64,000 nt of DNA from Enterobacteria phage vB_EcoM_IME338, in the sequence record MH051914. One strand, given 5' to 3'. The notes under the pieces were generated by a model. The model saw only the letters and a list, made by a program, of their open reading frames with translations, made no database searches and was not told the DNA's origin. Position 1 is the stretch's first letter, and every line of letters starts with the position of its first letter. The position numbers were made by a program, and so were the translations under genes. Of the stretch, positions 5,729 to 32,715 are shown piece after piece.

Positions 5729-6277
5729 ATGAAGAAGTTGATTCTAGGTTTGTGCTTAATGTTTACAGCACACTTATCTTATGCAGTTGACTGCCCAGAG
5801 CTATCAATTAGCCAAAAAGTAAACATGTTAAAAGCTTACCAGTATGGTGAGAATAACATGGGTAAAGGTTGGGGTATCACTCTAGCTGCTATAGCCTTAC
5901 AAGAGTCAGAGTTAGGTCTGAATATGGAGAATAAAAAGACCCATGACTATGGTATCTTCCAGAATCACTTGAAGACTGTTGTAAAGCGTAACAAAATTAG
6001 TCCTAATGTGGCTAAAAAGAAACTCTTAAAAGACTTTGACTATGCTGCAAAGGAAACGCACAAAGAACTTGAGTTTTGGACAAAGGTACATGGTCAGCCA
6101 AAGTCAAAGAAGACTTTACAAAAAGTTTTAGCATCATATAATGCTGGGTATTCGTACAAAATCCCTAAAGCTAAGAAATACTCTCAAGATGTCTATAACA
6201 ATATGAAAGTTATCGCTCAATGTGAATTTGCAACAAACATTTCTAAGGTAAATCATGAAAAAATTAAGAAAGTCTGA
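5729..6277 (+). CDS. secreted lysozyme-like / lytic transglycosylase (SLT-type) protein
   Basis: N-terminal signal peptide MKKLILGLCLMFTAHLSYA; SLT-like catalytic block QESELG...YGIFQ. Confidence 0.5.
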   Translation: MKKLILGLCLMFTAHLSYAVDCPELSISQKVNMLKAYQYGENNMGKGWGITLAAIALQESELGLNMENKKTHDYGIFQNHLKTVVKRNKISPNVAKKKLLKDFDYAAKETHKELEFWTKVHGQPKSKKTLQKVLASYNAGYSYKIPKAKKYSQDVYNNMKVIAQCEFATNISKVNHEKIKKV

Positions 6278-6950
6278 TGAAGTACTGTGCCATGCTTATG
6301 ACTTGCATCCTCATGAGTTAGGTCTTGATTCCTGTGTATGGACTCCAGAACAGTGCAGGGATTTTGAAGATACTGCAAGAGAAGTTGTATGTTCACTTGA
6401 AGAGTTCCACACATCAGAACCAATTGTGAACGTTGTGGACAAAGAGACTGGACAATCTATAGGTGTAAGACGTGATAGTTTAGTCATAGTCAATAAAGAC
6501 CTTGTAGAAAAAGGTAACCTCATCTTAGCAGATATTGATGGTGTTCTTACAAATTTTAATCACGAAGATTGCTCAACGGAACTGATTGATGGGTCATTCT
6601 CACAGTACACTAATCTTCTTGACTCTGTAAGAGCAAAACCAACATATGTTTTTAGTATTATTGATGCAATTGCTAATTATGCTGCCATTGGACTCTTGAC
6701 AGCTAGAGGTGAATCTCAGAGAATACCTACTGAGATGTTTTTAAGGCATTACATAGAGCATGATTACATGCTTTTCATGCGTGGTTTTGGAACTAACTCT
6801 ATAAGTGCAGAAAGTTTAAAAGTTAGGATGATTCAGTCTTGCATTCTTCCTTACTTTAATATAGTATGCTTTATAGAAGATACAGAGAAGAATGTTCAGA
6901 AGGTGAACAGGATTCTCCCACACATCAAAACCATGTTAGTTAAACATTGA
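6255..6950 (+). CDS. hypothetical protein
   Basis: 231-aa ORF, AGGT RBS. Confidence 0.5.
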   Translation: MKKLRKSDEVLCHAYDLHPHELGLDSCVWTPEQCRDFEDTAREVVCSLEEFHTSEPIVNVVDKETGQSIGVRRDSLVIVNKDLVEKGNLILADIDGVLTNFNHEDCSTELIDGSFSQYTNLLDSVRAKPTYVFSIIDAIANYAAIGLLTARGESQRIPTEMFLRHYIEHDYMLFMRGFGTNSISAESLKVRMIQSCILPYFNIVCFIEDTEKNVQKVNRILPHIKTMLVKH

Positions 6951-10876: not shown

Positions 10877-10964
10877 AAAGTACTTTACAAGGGGCTTAAA
10901 AGTTGATATCTTAAGCCCCAGATAAAGAGCTTTACTAACTAACCTTAAACTAGGAGATTCTAAA
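10877..10964 (+). repeat. intergenic module family A copy 1 (promoter + stem-loop + RBS), diverged
   Basis: TTTACA..GGGGCTTA...TAAGCCCC..RBS. Confidence 0.5.
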
Positions 10965-14719: not shown

Positions 14720-14806
14720 AAGTACTTTACAAGGGGCTTAAGAGATTGATACCATAAGCCCCAGATAAAGAGCTTTACCACTAAATCCTAAACTGGAGTT
14801 TTCACA
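14720..14806 (+). repeat. intergenic module family A copy 5 (variant)
   Basis: same architecture, variant stem. Confidence 0.5.
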
Positions 14807-14953: not shown

Positions 14954-15000
14954 AGCTATAGTATCAATCAAGCCCACTTCCTAAACTGGAGATTCAAAAA

Positions 15001-15342
15001 ATGGCTTATGTAACTGTAATTACCAATAAAGCGGATTCATCTTGGTCAACTCAAGTAAGCGATAAAATGTCACCTATGCAGTGCCTAAAATACTTTGAGC
15101 AGTGGAACAAAGGCGAGGATGTCAGCCCCTTTCAAGTCATGCAGATTATCCATGTAAGCAATGAAGGGGTTAAAACGGTTTTAAATAGTGAGTACTATGT
15201 AACCAGATTTGAAACAAGATGTAAAGCAATGAAGCTCTTGCGTGAGTCTGGTTATGCCCATATCGCCGCGTTAATCTGGAATGACTTGCTAAAAAATCAG
15301 CGTATCAGCTACGTAAAACCTGAAAAAATATTCATCAGTTAA
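15001..15342 (+). CDS. hypothetical protein (array gene 13)
   Basis: conserved TIR. Confidence 0.55.
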   Translation: MAYVTVITNKADSSWSTQVSDKMSPMQCLKYFEQWNKGEDVSPFQVMQIIHVSNEGVKTVLNSEYYVTRFETRCKAMKLLRESGYAHIAALIWNDLLKNQRISYVKPEKIFIS

Positions 15343-15461
15343 TCAATAACTTACAAAAAACTTTTAAAAAGATGTTGACAATCCCTCTTGACATTGGTAA
15401 CTTTGTTCGAGGGGGTTTATCTAAAAGGGATTCACTTAAAAGATTCTTTATAGATAAACTT

Positions 15462-15564
15462 AAAAAATTGCTTGCAATCAGATATCAAAACAAGTAAATT
15501 ACTAATCAACGGGGAGACGATAACCTCCCCACTAAATAAAGCCCTTAAACTAGGAGATTCAAAA
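15462..15564 (+). repeat. intergenic module family B copy 4
   Basis: TTGCAA-N17-TAAATT, hairpin GGGGAGACGATAACCTCCCC, conserved RBS. Confidence 0.55.
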
Positions 15565-16095
15565 ATGAACAAGTTCAAAGCTATCAACTTCATTCGTTCA
15601 AATAGTGTCATGTCAAAGCCTGTCAAAGATACCTACGAATTTCGTTGCAATAGGGTACATTTTGCAACCATCACCAAATCAGAAAACGGGGCTTATTACG
15701 TTCATCGTCGTAATGCTGCAACCGTTGCAGTCTCTCACTTTATGCAAGCTGTAGCAGAGTTATTACCGCTATTCTTAGAGATTTACTTAGATGATTGTAA
15801 AAACGTTCACAGACACGTTAAAAACCTTTTAAATGGTTATAAAATGGCTTATGAACGTTCTATTAAGTCCTTAAACAAGTTCTATAAAGCCCCTGTAAAT
15901 ACTGTTTCAATGGCCTACGGCATAGGTGGCTGGACTGTTAACCTTTCTCTAGTGGAAGAAATCGAGCTTTATGATTTACGTCCTAGCTGTTACGCTAAGA
16001 CACTGGGAGAGGGCTTATCTTTCAACATCAAGAACTTAGAGAAAACTTTAAAAGATATTGAAAAAGATATTGATGAGACAATCAAAAATCTGTAA
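15565..16095 (+). CDS. hypothetical protein (array gene 14)
   Basis: start reset to ATG after conserved TIR; track ORF 15472 starts inside the repeat module. Confidence 0.5.
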   Translation: MNKFKAINFIRSNSVMSKPVKDTYEFRCNRVHFATITKSENGAYYVHRRNAATVAVSHFMQAVAELLPLFLEIYLDDCKNVHRHVKNLLNGYKMAYERSIKSLNKFYKAPVNTVSMAYGIGGWTVNLSLVEEIELYDLRPSCYAKTLGEGLSFNIKNLEKTLKDIEKDIDETIKNL

Positions 16096-16136
16096 ATTAC
16101 TAATCAACGGGGCTAAATAGCCCCAGATACCTGAAC

Positions 16137-16161
16137 AGCCCCTATTTAAAGGGGCTTTTTT
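16137..16161 (+). terminator. rho-independent terminator closing the small-gene array
   Basis: AGCCCC-TATTTAAA-GGGGCT followed by T6. Confidence 0.6.
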
Positions 16162-17880
16162 ACGTCTTATCAAATACCCTTTCCTTTCCTTTCCAGAATC
16201 TATCCCACTGGTTCGATAGAATCTATCTCATACCTTAAAAGCAATAACTCTATAGTCTACTCTATAATCTCTTATCAAATCAACTTAAATATAAGCCCAT
16301 AACCCGAAAGGGAAGGGCAACCATTAATTGGTATTGTTACCAATCCCTAAAACGCTCTATAAAGCTCTATAACAGCCTTATCAACCTAACTTAAGCAATC
16401 ATATTAACCCACTTTAAAAAGCCCTTCCTAGAGCTTCCCAGAGCCTTAAAAGAATCTTATAAGTGTGTGAGCTTTATCATCTCGTTAGCTATCTTAATGG
16501 TATTGTTATCAATCCCTAGTGAATAACTAAACAACCCCTTGATAGTCACTAAAAAGTATGTTATAGGGGTTTAAAAGTTACTTTGAAGTAGCTTAAAAGT
16601 TACGTAAATGCTAGCCCCCTTAACATTTTCTTAACAATTCCTTAACAATCCCTACATAGTTATGCTTTTAAGGCACTTGTTAGCAACTTGTTAGCCCCTT
16701 GTTAAATCTCTGTTACAACCATGTAAAAGTTTTGTAAGAGTCTTTGACATAGCCTTAAAAGCTCCTGTAAAGCCCTATAAAGAGCTATCCATACAGTTGA
16801 GGGGTAGATACTAGGAAGAGGCTTAAAAGAGCTTACAAAGAGCTATAGAGAGCTTTTAAGAGGGCTATTTAAAGGGTCACTAGGGGTTGGTAACAATACC
16901 AATTAAGAAGGAAAGGGAACGATAAGAAAAGAGATAAGTTGTGTTTGTAAACAACCACTGTGACCATGTTAATAGCTTGTTAAAAAGATTAGACACTTGT
17001 TAGGAACTTGTTAATTATCTTAACAAAATAACTCTTAAAAATTAACTAATTGGTATTGTTACCAATCCCTGTTAACTCTTGTCAGTCATCTGTTAAACCT
17101 CTGTAAAGACTATGTATCAACTGTTAAGAAACTGTTACACTCTTGTTAAAACTGTTAAGAAACTGTTAAGACCTCTGAAGAGATGTTAAGAGCTTGAGAG
17201 AGTTGTTAAGAAATTGTTAAGGATATTTTAAAATTTTGCAAAGTACTTGTAAGGGAGCTGTTAAGGGCTACCAAGCAGATATACATCTTCTACAGATATT
17301 TTTGAGTTCCTTCAAAGACCCTAAAAAATGACTTGATAGTCCTATTTTATAAAAATTTTAAAATTCTGAATAATTACCTAGACAGTCTTTTAAAAATACA
17401 GGCATAAACAGGCTTATAAGATACCTTGTTAGTACCGTGTTAGACCTTGTGAGATAAGGTCTGTAAAGATATTCCTGTTAAGTTTGTTAAAACAGTCTAT
17501 ATAGAGGCTTAGTAATACCTAGTGAACACCTATAGAGGGTAACATAGCTGACATAATGGGTTACTGTTAAGTAATACAGATAACCTAGAGATTAAGAGGT
17601 GTATAGGGGCTTCTAAGAGGGTATAGAGAGATGGTTAAGGTGATTGTATAGGTTGTTAAGAATGCTTGTTAGAAGAGTGTTTAGAAGGGCTATACAGAGG
17701 GCTATTAAGACCACTAGATAGTTACTAAGATACTATATAGTACTATATAACTATATATAGAGAGTAAGATTAAGAAGGTTGTTAAGAAGGGTAGATATTT
17801 TATTCACATATGATGGTGACCCAGAGGTTGGGACAACCGATAAAATTTTATAAAAATTATAAATTTCGTAAATTTTACTC
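16162..17880. repeat. ORF-free repeat-rich region (palindromes, iteron-like short repeats)
   Basis: no ORF of 60 aa or more on either strand; 4 copies of palindrome-containing motif GGTATTGTTACCAATCC; many CTTAAAAG and TGTTAAG repeats. Confidence 0.6.
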
Positions 17881-17883
17881 AAT

Positions 17884-17915
17884 AAAAAGCCCCCAATTAA
17901 GGAGGCTCTTAAGAT
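17884..17915 (-). terminator. rho-independent terminator (minus strand)
   Basis: minus-strand hairpin AGCCTCC-TTAATT-GGGGGCT followed by T-run, downstream of 17919-18599. Confidence 0.5.
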
Positions 17916-17918
17916 ATT

Positions 17919-18599
17919 TTAAATCAGTGTTTCCAGAACTGTCTTCAGTGATGACTTGGTTGTCTGATAAAAATGAGTAAATCCGTTGTTGTTATCGAAT
18001 ACCAGCATCATGATATCATCTCCATTGATTGGGTACACTCGGATATCATAGTGGGACCCATTAAAGACAGCAGAACCATTACAGAATACACTAAAATCAT
18101 CCACTGAGATATACTCTTCATGACCTGTGATTTTTATACAAACACCTTTACTCGGTCTCTTAGGGTTGATATCTTCCATCACAAGCATTTGTTGTCCACC
18201 AAGAGAAATCATAGTGAACTCTTTACGGTTCTGCTGTTTAACATACATTTCAAGTTTCTGCAAAGTATCTTTATAGAACGGATAAGACTCCTTAACAAAG
18301 ATACCTTTTAGTGGCTCTTTACCATTCTTAACTTCTCTGATATGCCGTACTGTTAAGACAAGCTGCTCTAGTCTGTTAAGGCTTTCTTTGGATAATGCTT
18401 CTTGAACATCATTCCAGTCAAGTACCAAGTACTTTCTCTCTAATTCAAACTGTTTTTCCATATCTATCAAATCCTGAAAATACTTCTTAGTGATTTTTGA
18501 CCACTCAGCAAAATGAATCTTTTTCTTCTTCCGAAGGAGAACCATATCTTTCAAGTTCATCCAATTCATCCTGCGAAGGTGTCCCGTAAGATTCTTCAT
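17919..18599 (-). CDS. hypothetical protein
   Basis: 226-aa ORF. Confidence 0.55.
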   Translation of the reverse strand: MKNLTGHLRRMNWMNLKDMVLLRKKKKIHFAEWSKITKKYFQDLIDMEKQFELERKYLVLDWNDVQEALSKESLNRLEQLVLTVRHIREVKNGKEPLKGIFVKESYPFYKDTLQKLEMYVKQQNRKEFTMISLGGQQMLVMEDINPKRPSKGVCIKITGHEEYISVDDFSVFCNGSAVFNGSHYDIRVYPINGDDIMMLVFDNNNGFTHFYQTTKSSLKTVLETLI

Positions 18600-18764
18600 C
18601 GTACAATTTCATAGTGTGGTATAGAGTAAGTTTTATTTCCAGATGACATAGCTAAATCTTCTTTAGTAGAGTTATTCAGTATTGCTTTACGAACAATTTC
18701 TTTAAGTTTCATTTTCACTACCTTGTTTGGTTAAGAGGGGCTATCAAGTAACCCCTTCAAGATT

Positions 18765-18992
18765 TTACTCAGAATCCTCAGATTTCTTTTCAGTCTTCTT
18801 CGTTTTCTTTTCAGCTTTCTTCTCAACTTCTGGTTTTGATTCTACAGTAGCTTCAATAGCAATGTCCAGAAGTTTTGAAAGGTCAGATTTAAGAACCGTT
18901 ACAGGTTGTTCATTGTAGTAGTTCTTGTCAAGGTGCTCTTTCAGTTCGTTCAGAGAGCTAAAGCCGAATGGCTGGATAGGTGTCTTAATCAT
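18765..18992 (-). CDS. hypothetical protein with Lys/Glu-rich tail
   Basis: 75-aa ORF. Confidence 0.45.
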   Translation of the reverse strand: MIKTPIQPFGFSSLNELKEHLDKNYYNEQPVTVLKSDLSKLLDIAIEATVESKPEVEKKAEKKTKKTEKKSEDSE

Positions 18993-19068
18993 TACTTAGT
19001 TTCTCCATAAGCATCTTTCAAGATTGCCTTGTTAATCATTTCAGCGATTGCAAAACGAACACATACAG

Positions 19069-24404: not shown

Positions 24405-24632
24405 GGCAGACCTACAGCTTCAAGTAAGATGGTACAGTAATCCATACAACAAGTCAAGAACTATTGCAAGTTAAAAAAGTTGTTGACAAAGTACTTGACA
24501 AGGTGTAGGCTTATAAATACTTAGAAGATAACTTAAAAGGTTCCTCTAAAAAGGCTATTTAAACAGATATCTTTCTGGATATCTATCTTTTATCTTAAAA
24601 GCCTTTTAAGAGGTCTTATAAGAGGCATACCA

Positions 24633-30891: not shown

Positions 30892-31092
30892 ATGAGCGAG
30901 ACCGTTTATAAAGAACTTTATGAAGCTAATAAGAAGCTAGAATTTATGCAGAACACTATCATGGCAATTGCAGACAGATTGTCTGTAGCAACAGGTATTG
31001 ATATTAAAGAGGCATCTATGGATGCACTTCTTGATGCTGTTGATGCAAAGTTCGAAGTTAAGAAAGAAGAGACTGCTACAGACTCTGAATAA
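30892..31092 (+). CDS. small hypothetical protein upstream of terminase
   Basis: 66 aa, GGAG RBS; too short to call small terminase with confidence. Confidence 0.45.
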   Translation: MSETVYKELYEANKKLEFMQNTIMAIADRLSVATGIDIKEASMDALLDAVDAKFEVKKEETATDSE

Positions 31093-31113
31093 TTCTATTT
31101 GCGGAGGCGCTTA

Positions 31114-32715
31114 ATGGACTTAAATGCTGTTAAGCAGAAGCGAGTGGAAGATGTTAGGAAAGTCCTAGCTGGAGAGTTGGGGCTTTCTGATGAAGTAAAA
31201 GAAATTATCAAATCATTCGGTAAAGACCCCTCTAAATTCCTTCCAACTCAAATTCTGACTTTATTAAGATACACACCAGACCAAGTTCGCCTCATCTTTA
31301 AATTGATGACTGATAAGAACTATGTAGCCCCTCAACCGGGTTCTCAAGAGGTGTTTTTAAATACTAATGCTGACTTGGTTTTATATGGTGGTGCTGCTGG
31401 TGCTGGTAAAACTGCTGCATTGTTAATGGACTCTTTAAGGTTTATTGAAGACCCTAACTATAATGCTGTATATTTCCGTCGAAATACAACACAGTTACAA
31501 GGTGGTTTATGGCCTGCTGCAAAGAAACTATTTGGTAAGTTTGGTGGGGTTCCTCACGAGCAGAAGATGACTATCACATTCCCTTCTGGGGCAACTATCA
31601 AGTTCACCTACCTAGAACTTGAAAAGCACGCTGAAGGTCATCAGGGTATTGAATACTCAGCTATTTACTTTGACGAAGGTACACACTTCTCAGCTTCACA
31701 GATTTCATACCTACAGACTCGTCTACGTTCCGGTGCTGAAGGTGATTCATACATGAAGATTTCTATGAACCCAGATAGAGACCACTTCATTTATGATTGG
31801 GTAGAGCCATTCTTAGATGAAGAAGGTTATCCAGACCCTGAGAAATGTGGTCGTATTCGTTGGTATGTTATGAATGATGGTGTGATGGTTTCTGATTGGG
31901 AGAGAGACAAGATTCTTGAAATGTTCCCTCTTGAGATTCCTCAGACATACACCTTCATCTCTGGTACGATTGATGATAACCCAATTCTTGACTTCTTAGA
32001 ACCTAAATATCGTGGTAAGTTGGAAAACAACACACCTGTAAACGTTGCAAGACTTCGTTTCGGTAACTGGAAGGCTCGTGCAGAAGGTTCAAACTATTGG
32101 CAAAGACAATGGTGTGAGATTGTTGATTCACTACCAGAAGATGTTTTTGATGTCAGAGCATGGGACTTAGCAGCGACTTTACCATCTGAAATTAACCCTA
32201 ACCCAGACTGGACAGCGGGTGTTAAGATGGGTAAATCTAAAAAAGACGGTTGCTATTATATCATTGATGTAGTAAGATTTAGAGATAGACCCTCTGGAGT
32301 CGAAACACAAATTAATTTGACTGCTGAAAGTGACGGTAAGCGAACTGGTATTTTTATCCCTCAAGACCCAGGCGCTGCTGGTAAATCCTATGCAACATCC
32401 CTCATCAGGAAACTTGCCGAGAAAGGTTATCGCGCAAGAGCTAAACCCACAAATAAAGATAAAGTTACCCGCTTTGCGGGATTTTCTGCTGCTTCTGAAG
32501 CTGGACTTGTAAAAGTCTTGAGAGGTAGTTGGAACGAAGCTTACTTCCAAGAACTTGAAGGTTTTTGTGGTGATGGCAAAACTAAAGATGACCAAGTGGA
32601 TGCTACCAGTGATGCTTTCAACAGTCTTAATGAAGTTAAATTATTCAAGCCACCATCAATGGGTGCTCACACAGACTTAGTGAGAGGAAACCCATATGAG
32701 GGGCTTAGACGTTGA
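31114..32715 (+). CDS. terminase large subunit
   Basis: Walker A LYGGAAGAGKT; GGAGG RBS before ATG 31114 (track start 31099); precedes portal. Confidence 0.75.
   Translation: MDLNAVKQKRVEDVRKVLAGELGLSDEVKEIIKSFGKDPSKFLPTQILTLLRYTPDQVRLIFKLMTDKNYVAPQPGSQEVFLNTNADLVLYGGAAGAGKTAALLMDSLRFIEDPNYNAVYFRRNTTQLQGGLWPAAKKLFGKFGGVPHEQKMTITFPSGATIKFTYLELEKHAEGHQGIEYSAIYFDEGTHFSASQISYLQTRLRSGAEGDSYMKISMNPDRDHFIYDWVEPFLDEEGYPDPEKCGRIRWYVMNDGVMVSDWERDKILEMFPLEIPQTYTFISGTIDDNPILDFLEPKYRGKLENNTPVNVARLRFGNWKARAEGSNYWQRQWCEIVDSLPEDVFDVRAWDLAATLPSEINPNPDWTAGVKMGKSKKDGCYYIIDVVRFRDRPSGVETQINLTAESDGKRTGIFIPQDPGAAGKSYATSLIRKLAEKGYRARAKPTNKDKVTRFAGFSAASEAGLVKVLRGSWNEAYFQELEGFCGDGKTKDDQVDATSDAFNSLNEVKLFKPPSMGAHTDLVRGNPYEGLRR

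Follow-up and report, generated by a model that had tools for sequence, protein, structure and literature searches.

A gene-free, repeat-rich region of a Felixounavirus genome as the probable chromosome terminus with its direct terminal repeat

We analyzed a 64,000-nt stretch of DNA from Enterobacteria phage vB_EcoM_IME338 (record MH051914), called here the window, whose coordinates are used throughout, and in particular the region at 16162-17880, which lies between two convergent transcription units: a gene on the plus strand ends at 16095 and a gene on the minus strand (17919-18599) ends at 17919. A whole-window scan for open reading frames (ORFs) of at least 60 amino acids (aa) revealed that 16096-17918 (1823 bp) is the longest interval free of them on both strands, the runner-up intervals being found within the tRNA cluster. 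A first-pass annotation, made from the letters only, had described 16162-17880 as free of such ORFs and rich in repeats, and indeed none is present there on either strand. Comparison with related phages makes it very probable that a Felixounavirus chromosome has its terminus here, the region being the concatemer junction and consisting of a right-arm flank, a direct terminal repeat (DTR) and a left-arm flank.

Both units stop before entering the region. The 3' end of the rightward unit (16103-16162, plus strand) carries a hairpin, GGGGCTAAATAGCCCC, at 16108-16123, and a rho-independent terminator stem at 16137-16156 followed by a T run, as detected by a terminator scan. The same scan placed the rho-independent terminator of the leftward unit on the minus strand at 17904-17890, within a feature (17880-17904) that is 99% conserved. 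Relatives, including the Mooglevirus phage Moogle, also have about 1.6 kb without ORFs at this place, flanked by an annotated terminator on each side.

By BLAST, 256 phage records matched 16100-17950 at 80-90% identity; almost all belong to Felixounavirus or elsewhere in the Ounavirinae, and by this sequence similarity we assign the window to Felixounavirus, the Felix O1-like myoviruses. A T5-type injection-stop region, which we had also considered, was dropped after this placement. The window opens at a homologue of rIIA, following a convention introduced for Felix O1 (PMC3185647), and contains 22 tRNA genes, a Mu-type portal and a T4-type large terminase, TerL, at 31099-32715 (Terminase_6N/6C). 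The TerL of this group clusters in the "Felixounalikevirus DTR group" according to PMC4837284, from which alone the clustering is taken.

Inside the region, homology to mapped termini places the DTR at 16614-17272 (659 bp, no strand assigned). It is present as a single copy, as in a collapsed or circularised assembly opened at rIIA, and would be expected at both ends of the virion DNA. The segment is homologous end to end with the annotated DTRs of Pr103Blw (581 bp), UAB_69 (618 bp) and the Mooglevirus HP1 (570 bp). The DTR of Pr103Blw was determined with PhageTerm (PMC8303462); in its record, the repeat is annotated at both ends in identical copies that start with GCCCCCTTAACA, corresponding to window position 16614, and terminate with ...TGTTAAGGGCTACC, corresponding to 17272. 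More than 10 records begin or end at one of these two positions. Those of Pr103Blw, CRP22, H12, D4, NBSal004 and HP1 start at the base homologous to 16614, while those of SPJ41, NBEco004, NBEco005, SLAM_phiST56, NBSal004, SeKF_63 and pEP20 start or end at 17272. As such records start or stop inside the region and match it at both of their own ends, the region holds physical genome ends.

Independent annotations and experiments on relatives agree with this placement. Both edges of the feature annotated as "DTR" in UAB_69 are within 2 nt of ours (16612 and 17274), and its sister UAB_Phi87 was found to have 608-bp terminal repeats by time-limited Bal31 digestion and run-off sequencing (PMC4837284). 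Short terminal repeats had already been inferred in the Felix O1 paper (PMC3185647), and short DTRs are supported by PhageTerm in Kolesnikvirus (PMC11984208). The identity of the region is already known for the genus Felixounavirus. The repeats of UAB_Phi87, UAB_69, Pr103Blw and HP1 are homologous to that of the window, with edges within 2 nt, located between convergent terminators and provided with the same internal arrays; the DTR of the window is longer than theirs, owing to two insertions of a mini-element described below, additional 11-nt units and further indels of about 24 nt. The first-pass annotation had offered four candidate functions for the region, namely a replication origin with iterons, a partition site, a packaging site and a noncoding RNA (ncRNA) locus. 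This proposal holds in part, the packaging site coming closest since the region contains the genome ends, which are the sites where the concatemer is cut.

The edges of the DTR have a common anatomy. The left edge motif, TAGCCCCCTTAACA (the reverse complement of TGTTAAGGGGGCTA), is located at 16612-16625 on the minus strand, and the left genome end falls at 16614 in the PhageTerm-type records or at 16612 in UAB_69. The right edge motif, TGTTAAGGGCTACC(AA), is located at 17259-17274 on the plus strand, where the right genome end falls at 17272, or at 17274 in UAB_69, followed by a conserved AAGCAGATATACA. The two edges therefore bear the same motif in inverted orientation (TGTTAAGGG..CTA), and two of the three occurrences of TGTTAAGGG in the 64 kb are these inverted edges. 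At both of them the cut would lie 5-9 nt past TGTTAAG.

Short units related to TGTTAAG, with the consensus YTGTTAAGA, are arranged in arrays between the two edges. Directly inside the left edge, three TGTTAAG units on the minus strand (16619-16647) follow each other at 11-nt spacing, and the same three reverse units occupy DTR positions 7, 18 and 29 in Pr103Blw and HP1 and related positions in the Erwinia phage MM7. Four TGTTA(G/A) units on the plus strand, also at 11-nt spacing, are found at 16678-16716, and relatives have more or fewer of them through 11- and 22-nt indels. The main forward array (16967-17265, plus strand) consists of about 17 TGTTA(A/G/C) units with spacings of 9-13, 20-21 and 31 nt and reaches the right DTR edge, being interrupted by one reverse unit (17020) and by one copy of the mini-element. 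Overall, TGTTA(A/G) units occur 25 times in forward and 4 times in reverse orientation in the region, pointing forward from 16678 onward. With TGTTA(A/G/C) as the pattern, successive forward units are separated by 28 spacings, of which 13 measure exactly 11 nt and most others 9, 13, 20-21 or 31 nt. The pattern TGTTA-N6-TGTTA-N6-TGTTA matched the window seven times, six of them in the DTR, when no match was expected by chance. The abundance of TGTTAAG noted at first is confirmed: the window has 39 exact copies (about 16 are expected window-wide), 15 of which fall within 16619-17786, and the tandem run reported at 17090-17280 is real.

The flanks carry a second set of oriented words. The right-arm subterminal non-coding flank (16162-16613, unstranded), which would lie just inside the right-hand DTR in the virion, is C-rich on the plus strand and contains four plus-strand copies of CTCTATA and three of CTTAAAAG. 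In the left-arm subterminal non-coding flank (17273-17880, unstranded), TGTTA units continue together with TATAGAG, the reverse complement of CTCTATA. This word is in forward orientation in the flank left of the DTR and in reverse orientation from 16844 rightward, and the G-C skew ranges from about -0.25 to -0.55 over most of 16162-16613 and reaches up to +0.74 in 17273-17880. When shared k-mers were compared between the left and right parts of the region, inverted symmetry was not clearly different from direct comparison; according to the k-mer and motif map, the orientation flip is limited to specific words (TGTTAAG and CTCTATA). The two further motif clusters proposed at first fared unequally, as CTTAAAAG has 7 of its 25 window copies in 16234-16860 (5.8 expected window-wide), while AGAGCTAT is weak, with two exact copies in the region. 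An invariant TATA-rich tandem run (ACTATATAGTACTATATAACTATATATAGAG, period 8-10) was also observed in the left-arm flank at 17724-17760.

Literature searches returned reports of DTRs and no published description of this internal repeat anatomy, and the accessible part of a PhageMaP study of the Felixounavirus Bas63, which targeted genes, holds nothing on the region. Scans of IMG/VR with the 16-mer TTGGTATTGTTACCAA and with three TGTTAA units at 11-nt spacing were uninformative, the matches listed being mostly unrelated.

We then considered the periodicity of the bases in the region, expressed as autocorrelation z-scores against 300 control pieces from the same window. Peaks appeared at lags 10-11 (z of about 8), 20-22 (z of about 6) and 31-32 (z of 4-6), and the 3-nt periodicity of coding DNA was absent from the region. 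The same combination, a 10-11/21-22/32-nt periodicity and no 3-nt signal, was found in the DTR and in each flank separately. These results bear on the idea that the region is an ncRNA locus or a cluster of small genes that have decayed or escaped annotation, as could be imagined from its length and conservation and from the ORFs of 26-50 aa that some records annotate here. The tiny annotated ORFs are not common to different records, and indels among relatives are mostly not multiples of 3. Regarding an RNA, a scan of 15000-19000 against Rfam 15 (E<=1) gave a single chance-level match, located on a terminator and scoring 24 bits vs a gathering score of 55; a sigma-70 scan gave 13 promoter-like sites vs 9.5 +/- 3.2 in shuffled sequence, which is not above expectation; the folding z-scores of the most conserved block on the two strands, -1.3 and -1.8, were ordinary; and the promoter and terminator scan showed only the two terminators, which face inward and bracket the region. 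We consequently regard an ncRNA locus or a group of small genes as a highly improbable explanation, the former having been one of the four candidates of the first-pass annotation. The same annotation had named annotated small genes or frameshifted ORFs in the homologous regions of relatives, together with repeats that are not conserved, as the outcome that would contradict it; this is not what we found, the tiny ORFs of some records not being conserved and the TGTTAAG arrays being kept across three genera.

Conservation was measured on an alignment of 17 Felixounavirus genomes (the window and 16 others). The longest invariant run, 31 nt at 16596-16626, spans the left DTR edge, and the right edge is about 90% conserved. 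Mean conservation was highest in the 17273-17880 flank (0.90), intermediate in the DTR (0.81) and lowest in the 16162-16613 flank (0.72). Indels among relatives cluster at 10-12, 21-27, 32-33, 88 and 99 nt. As these lengths are approximately whole multiples of 11 nt, helical phase is kept, and the region evolves through gain and loss of whole helical-turn units.

The layout is also found beyond the genus. In HP1, with its 570-bp DTR, the edges and the positions of the units are the same as in the window. MM7, a Kolesnikvirus, has a record with an exact 444-bp repeat at both ends, in which reverse TTAACA units stand at the left edge and a forward TGTTAAG array runs up to the right edge, in the same TTTTGCAAAG ... 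| ... AGATATACA context. When Kolesnikvirus genomes of the MM7 type were compared with the window by BLAST, the main forward array was the only part that aligned. The 11-nt periodicity is present in representatives of Felixounavirus, Mooglevirus and Kolesnikvirus, and the layout outlasts the divergence of the remaining sequence.

The positions with the strongest conservation among the 17 genomes, 17300-17525 (0.97-1.00), are above the DTR itself in this respect and include an invariant AT-rich block at 17342-17380. This arrangement brings in the possibility of an iteron origin, in which the phased TGTTA repeats would bind an initiator and the AT-rich block would unwind, and which could coexist with a terminus function. 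Direct repeats in helical phase and an invariant AT-rich block about 70 nt past the array, where conservation within the region is highest, speak for it, and the T7 record has phiOL and phiOR "origin" promoters in its terminal non-coding regions. On the contrary, DnaA boxes are not enriched in the window (83 vs 92 expected, 3 of them in the region), and the phage units are only 11 nt apart, unlike typical iterons, which are 17-22 bp long. In addition, the adjacent genes show no replication-protein signature by Pfam or PHROG and no initiator gene was recognised among them, the GC skew of the window tracks the direction of transcription and gives no independent origin signal, and no origin is known experimentally for the genus. 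Compared with iteron origins in general, the region resembles them by its phased direct repeats next to an AT-rich block and differs by its shorter units and by lacking a DnaA-box cluster and an adjacent initiator gene. Taken together, we consider an origin at this place unlikely, although it deserves more credit than the ncRNA or small-gene explanation. A partition site, another of the four early candidates, finds no support either, considering that the phage is virulent and that the neighbouring genes have no Pfam match, belong only to PHROGs of unknown function and include no recognisable partition gene.

Returning to the chromosome terminus, the arrays and edges most likely serve, by analogy with the T7 junction, in recognition and cutting by the packaging machinery. 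In the virion, each end of the linear DNA would bear 16614-17272 as a short, exactly repeated DTR, whereas the replicative head-to-tail concatemer would hold one copy of it between two genomes. Both arms would be transcribed outward toward the ends and stop at the terminators, leaving the junction transcriptionally quiet as a consequence. A recognition protein, which could be a small terminase or another phage or host protein of winged-helix type, would bind the phased TGTTA(A/G) units cooperatively, these units being on one face of the helix because they recur every 11 nt. The terminase would then recognise the junction and nick the inverted edge motifs, which are separated by about 660 bp, on opposite strands; as the edge motif is the same and inverted, a single recognition and cleavage geometry could account for both nicks. 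Finally, strand-displacement synthesis through the repeat would leave a full DTR on each end, as in the T7 paradigm. Homology to mapped termini establishes where the DTR lies and how far it extends, and its anatomy and conservation are likewise observed; it is the protein that binds the repeats and the way in which the cuts are made that we infer.

The likeness to T7 is one of architecture and, presumably, of function. The T7 junction has a 160-bp exact DTR in non-coding DNA, with short A-rich units (CCTAAAG/CTTAAAG/CATAAAG) regularly spaced in and beside the repeat. However, the T7 units are 13 nt apart, in a single orientation and mostly just outside the repeat, while those of the window are 11 nt apart, mostly inside and inverted at the edges. 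We found no sequence homology between the region and the T7 junction, and unit sequence, spacing and orientation all differ. Moreover, the T7 junction contains the promoters A0, phiOL and phiOR and is transcribed through, whereas the junction of the window is isolated by terminators, and Felix O1 encodes no phage RNA polymerase (PMC3185647). In T7, the junction serves as the substrate for packaging, and in PMC13236587, Chung and Hinkle (1990) are cited for the sufficiency of a T7 concatemer junction plus an origin for packaging. By this comparison, the region is a functional and architectural analogue of the T7 junction without belonging to its family.

Terminase recognition sites of other phages offer a further comparison. 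The R sites of lambda cosB, the hexamer arrays of P1 pac and pacL/pacR of SPP1 all consist of several short repeats near the cut, which by analogy suggests that the arrays of the window could form a cooperative binding platform. Lambda, P1 and SPP1 package by cos or headful mechanisms, in which there is one cut region and an exact DTR is lacking, and the P1 repeats contain GATC, which the units of the window lack.

A host protein could also be the one that binds. The arrays may be a platform for ArcA-P, the oxygen-sensing response regulator, or another regulator of the OmpR/PhoB type, which would coat the ends as an architectural, marking, protecting or silencing factor. The sites of ArcA-P are made of 2-5 direct repeats with a TGTTA core (ATGTTAAAAA-1-ATGTTAAAAA) at 11- or 22-bp spacing, and extra repeats raise the affinity (PMC4173790). 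The phage units share with these operators the TGTTA core, the direct orientation, the variable number of repeats and a centre-to-centre spacing of 11 or 22 nt, and with at least two such repeats they agree with this part of the ArcA-P site description (PMC4173790). The array is kept from phages of E. coli, Salmonella and Citrobacter to those of Erwinia. As far as is known, these hosts all have ArcA. However, the case consists of a resemblance between motifs, and conservation across genera is equally explained by a conserved phage protein, for example the terminase. The region has about 25 repeats, far more than ArcA-P operators, and its sites do not overlap a promoter. When the unit consensus YTGTTAAGA was set against the 10-bp ATGTTAAAAA, its 3' side proved A-rich, but position 7 of the unit, an A in the ArcA consensus, is most often G in the window and in MM7; this G may point to a different, possibly phage-encoded, protein. 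We therefore hold a host regulator platform to be improbable, somewhat more so than an origin.

Several points weigh against the assignment of the region to the packaging terminus, or against parts of it. The DTR of this particular phage is deduced from homology to relatives, and the edge positions differ by 2 nt between methods (16614/17272 vs 16612/17274). For this phage group, only the large terminase has been reported (PMC4837284), with no small terminase or other binding protein. The genes adjoining the region have no recognisable function: searches of the six flanking genes against Pfam gave no match, and those against PHROG gave only families of unknown function. The block at 17300-17525, which is the most conserved, lies outside the DTR and is left unexplained by the cutting model. 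It is also conceivable that the arrays act at the ends in something other than packaging, for example in replication, end protection or silencing.

Superimposed on this anatomy is a small element built around GGTATTGTTACCAATCC, which the first-pass annotation had described as a palindrome present in four copies. The four copies do exist, at 16330 (plus strand, 0 mismatches), 16499 (plus, 1), 16884 (minus, 1) and 17052 (plus, 0), and when up to 3 mismatches were allowed, 5 matches were found in the window vs 0.17 expected by chance. It is not a perfect palindrome, being a 6-4-6 dyad (TTGGTA TTGT TACCAA) with an asymmetric centre and oriented flanks. As a core feature of the region it did not survive the comparison with relatives, where it is not conserved, each copy being a clean 22-23-nt insertion with respect to most of them.

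Copy 1 (TTAATTGGTATTGTTACCAATCC; 16324-16346, plus strand) is a 23-nt insertion whose site is filled in the window, in L27 and, by a variant, in SUSP2, and is empty in Felix O1, Pr103Blw, Mushroom, AYO145A, Andreotti and UAB_69. The degenerate copy 2 (AATGGTATTGTTATCAATCCCTA; 16496-16518, plus strand), also of 23 nt, has an empty site in all 16 other aligned Felixounavirus genomes and a filled one in the Mooglevirus phage Silverhawkium. The other two lie inside the DTR: copy 3 (16881-16903, minus strand), which is inverted, is common to Andreotti and VpaE1, and copy 4 (17048-17069, plus strand), of 22 nt, is common to UAB_69, NBSal004, Silverhawkium and SUSP2, both sites being empty in the others. 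No copy was found in Felix O1, Pr103Blw, Mushroom, AYO145A, Moogle, Sf17, HP1 or MM7.

By BLAST, the mini-element is present in about 68 Ounavirinae records, corresponding to about a quarter of the relatives, with 1-3 copies per genome, and in every record checked it is located inside this non-coding region. At least 6 distinct sites are used, some of which are filled alike in Felixounavirus, Mooglevirus and Suspvirus. An origin from a miniature inverted-repeat transposable element or an insertion sequence was rejected, as the element is only 22-23 nt long with one internal 6-4-6 dyad and its target duplication is inconsistent: a TA duplication fits copy 3 and the L145 site and does not fit copies 1, 2 and 4. 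The element behaves as a small module of two helical turns, which may spread by recombination or some other insertion process, and it could be a protein-binding site.

Of 5426 complete E. coli genomes, 103 carry a 25-nt form of this module, TAATTGGTATTGTTACCAATCCCTA, in the chromosome at 100% identity. Two of them, NC_013364.1 (E. coli O111 11128; about 1.6067 Mb) and NZ_CP017220.1, were examined, and in both the module is located within about 1-1.5 kb of ORF-free DNA at the end of a prophage-like region (positions 6001-6025 of the extracted pieces). The non-coding E. coli DNA around it gave no megablast match among 50,697 phage records, whereas a search of that DNA in sensitive mode matched Ounavirinae only, through the mini-element and a second segment of about 90 nt. 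This second segment (6731-6826 of the NC_013364.1 piece) has 72-80% identity to Ounavirinae, for example to Andreotti (MN850610, 36814-36890), where it occupies an unannotated spot about 44 kb from the terminus; it is absent from the window. The sharing of TAATTGGTATTGTTACCAATCCCTA could reflect a protein-binding site in common, the mobility of a mini-module or a satellite imitating the end signals of its helper phage.

These results have a practical side. Many deposited genomes of Felix O1-like phages start at rIIA or at an arbitrary point and have a collapsed terminal repeat without annotation, and this is probably also the case for the source of the window. Recognising the region fixes the true genome ends as well as the genome length, which is that of the collapsed assembly plus one DTR. 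It also provides a map of the sites where the packaging machinery would act in a group of phages with therapeutic and diagnostic use: two inverted edge motifs, phased arrays over three genera and a highly conserved block inside the left end. What appears to be new is the inverted edge motifs, the 11-nt phased arrays over three genera, the phase-preserving indels and the polymorphic 23-nt module, which amount to a modest refinement of a known element. If the arrays did bind a host regulator, packaging or end stability would be linked to the anaerobic conditions of the gut. Such binding, or a 25-nt module linking phages to chromosomal elements, would be new biology, and we mention both only as leads.

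Other observations concern the surroundings of the region and the rest of the window. The last gene of the right arm, 15472-16095, has an allele common to the window and phage Mushroom, while other relatives have an unrelated gene at this place; this swap of alleles reveals mosaicism directly beside the terminus. A 66-aa ORF at 30892-31092 lies directly upstream of the large terminase gene, a position of interest as no small terminase has been recognised in this phage group. Two copies of a family of terminator-like hairpins (..CTTTACAAGGGGCTTAA(A/G)AG...TAAGCCCCAGATAAAGAGCTTTAC) are located at 10880-10950 and 14720-14790 and have the words CTTAAAAG and AAAGAGCT in common with the terminal region. 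They appear to correspond to the 57-bp direct repeats reported in the Felix O1 genome paper (PMC3185647). The ORF-free gap at 24405-24632 contains a TTGACA hexamer, a palindromic CTTAAAAGGCTTTTAAG and more CTTAAAAG/CTTATAAG words, with a change of sign in the GC skew nearby. Divergent promoters may lie in this gap, separating leftward genes from the block of tRNA and structural genes that is read rightward. Finally, the 147-kb record GU169904.1, named "Staphylococcus phage SA1", holds at 135363-137110 this Felixounavirus terminal region at 87% identity, and this record looks chimeric or contaminated.

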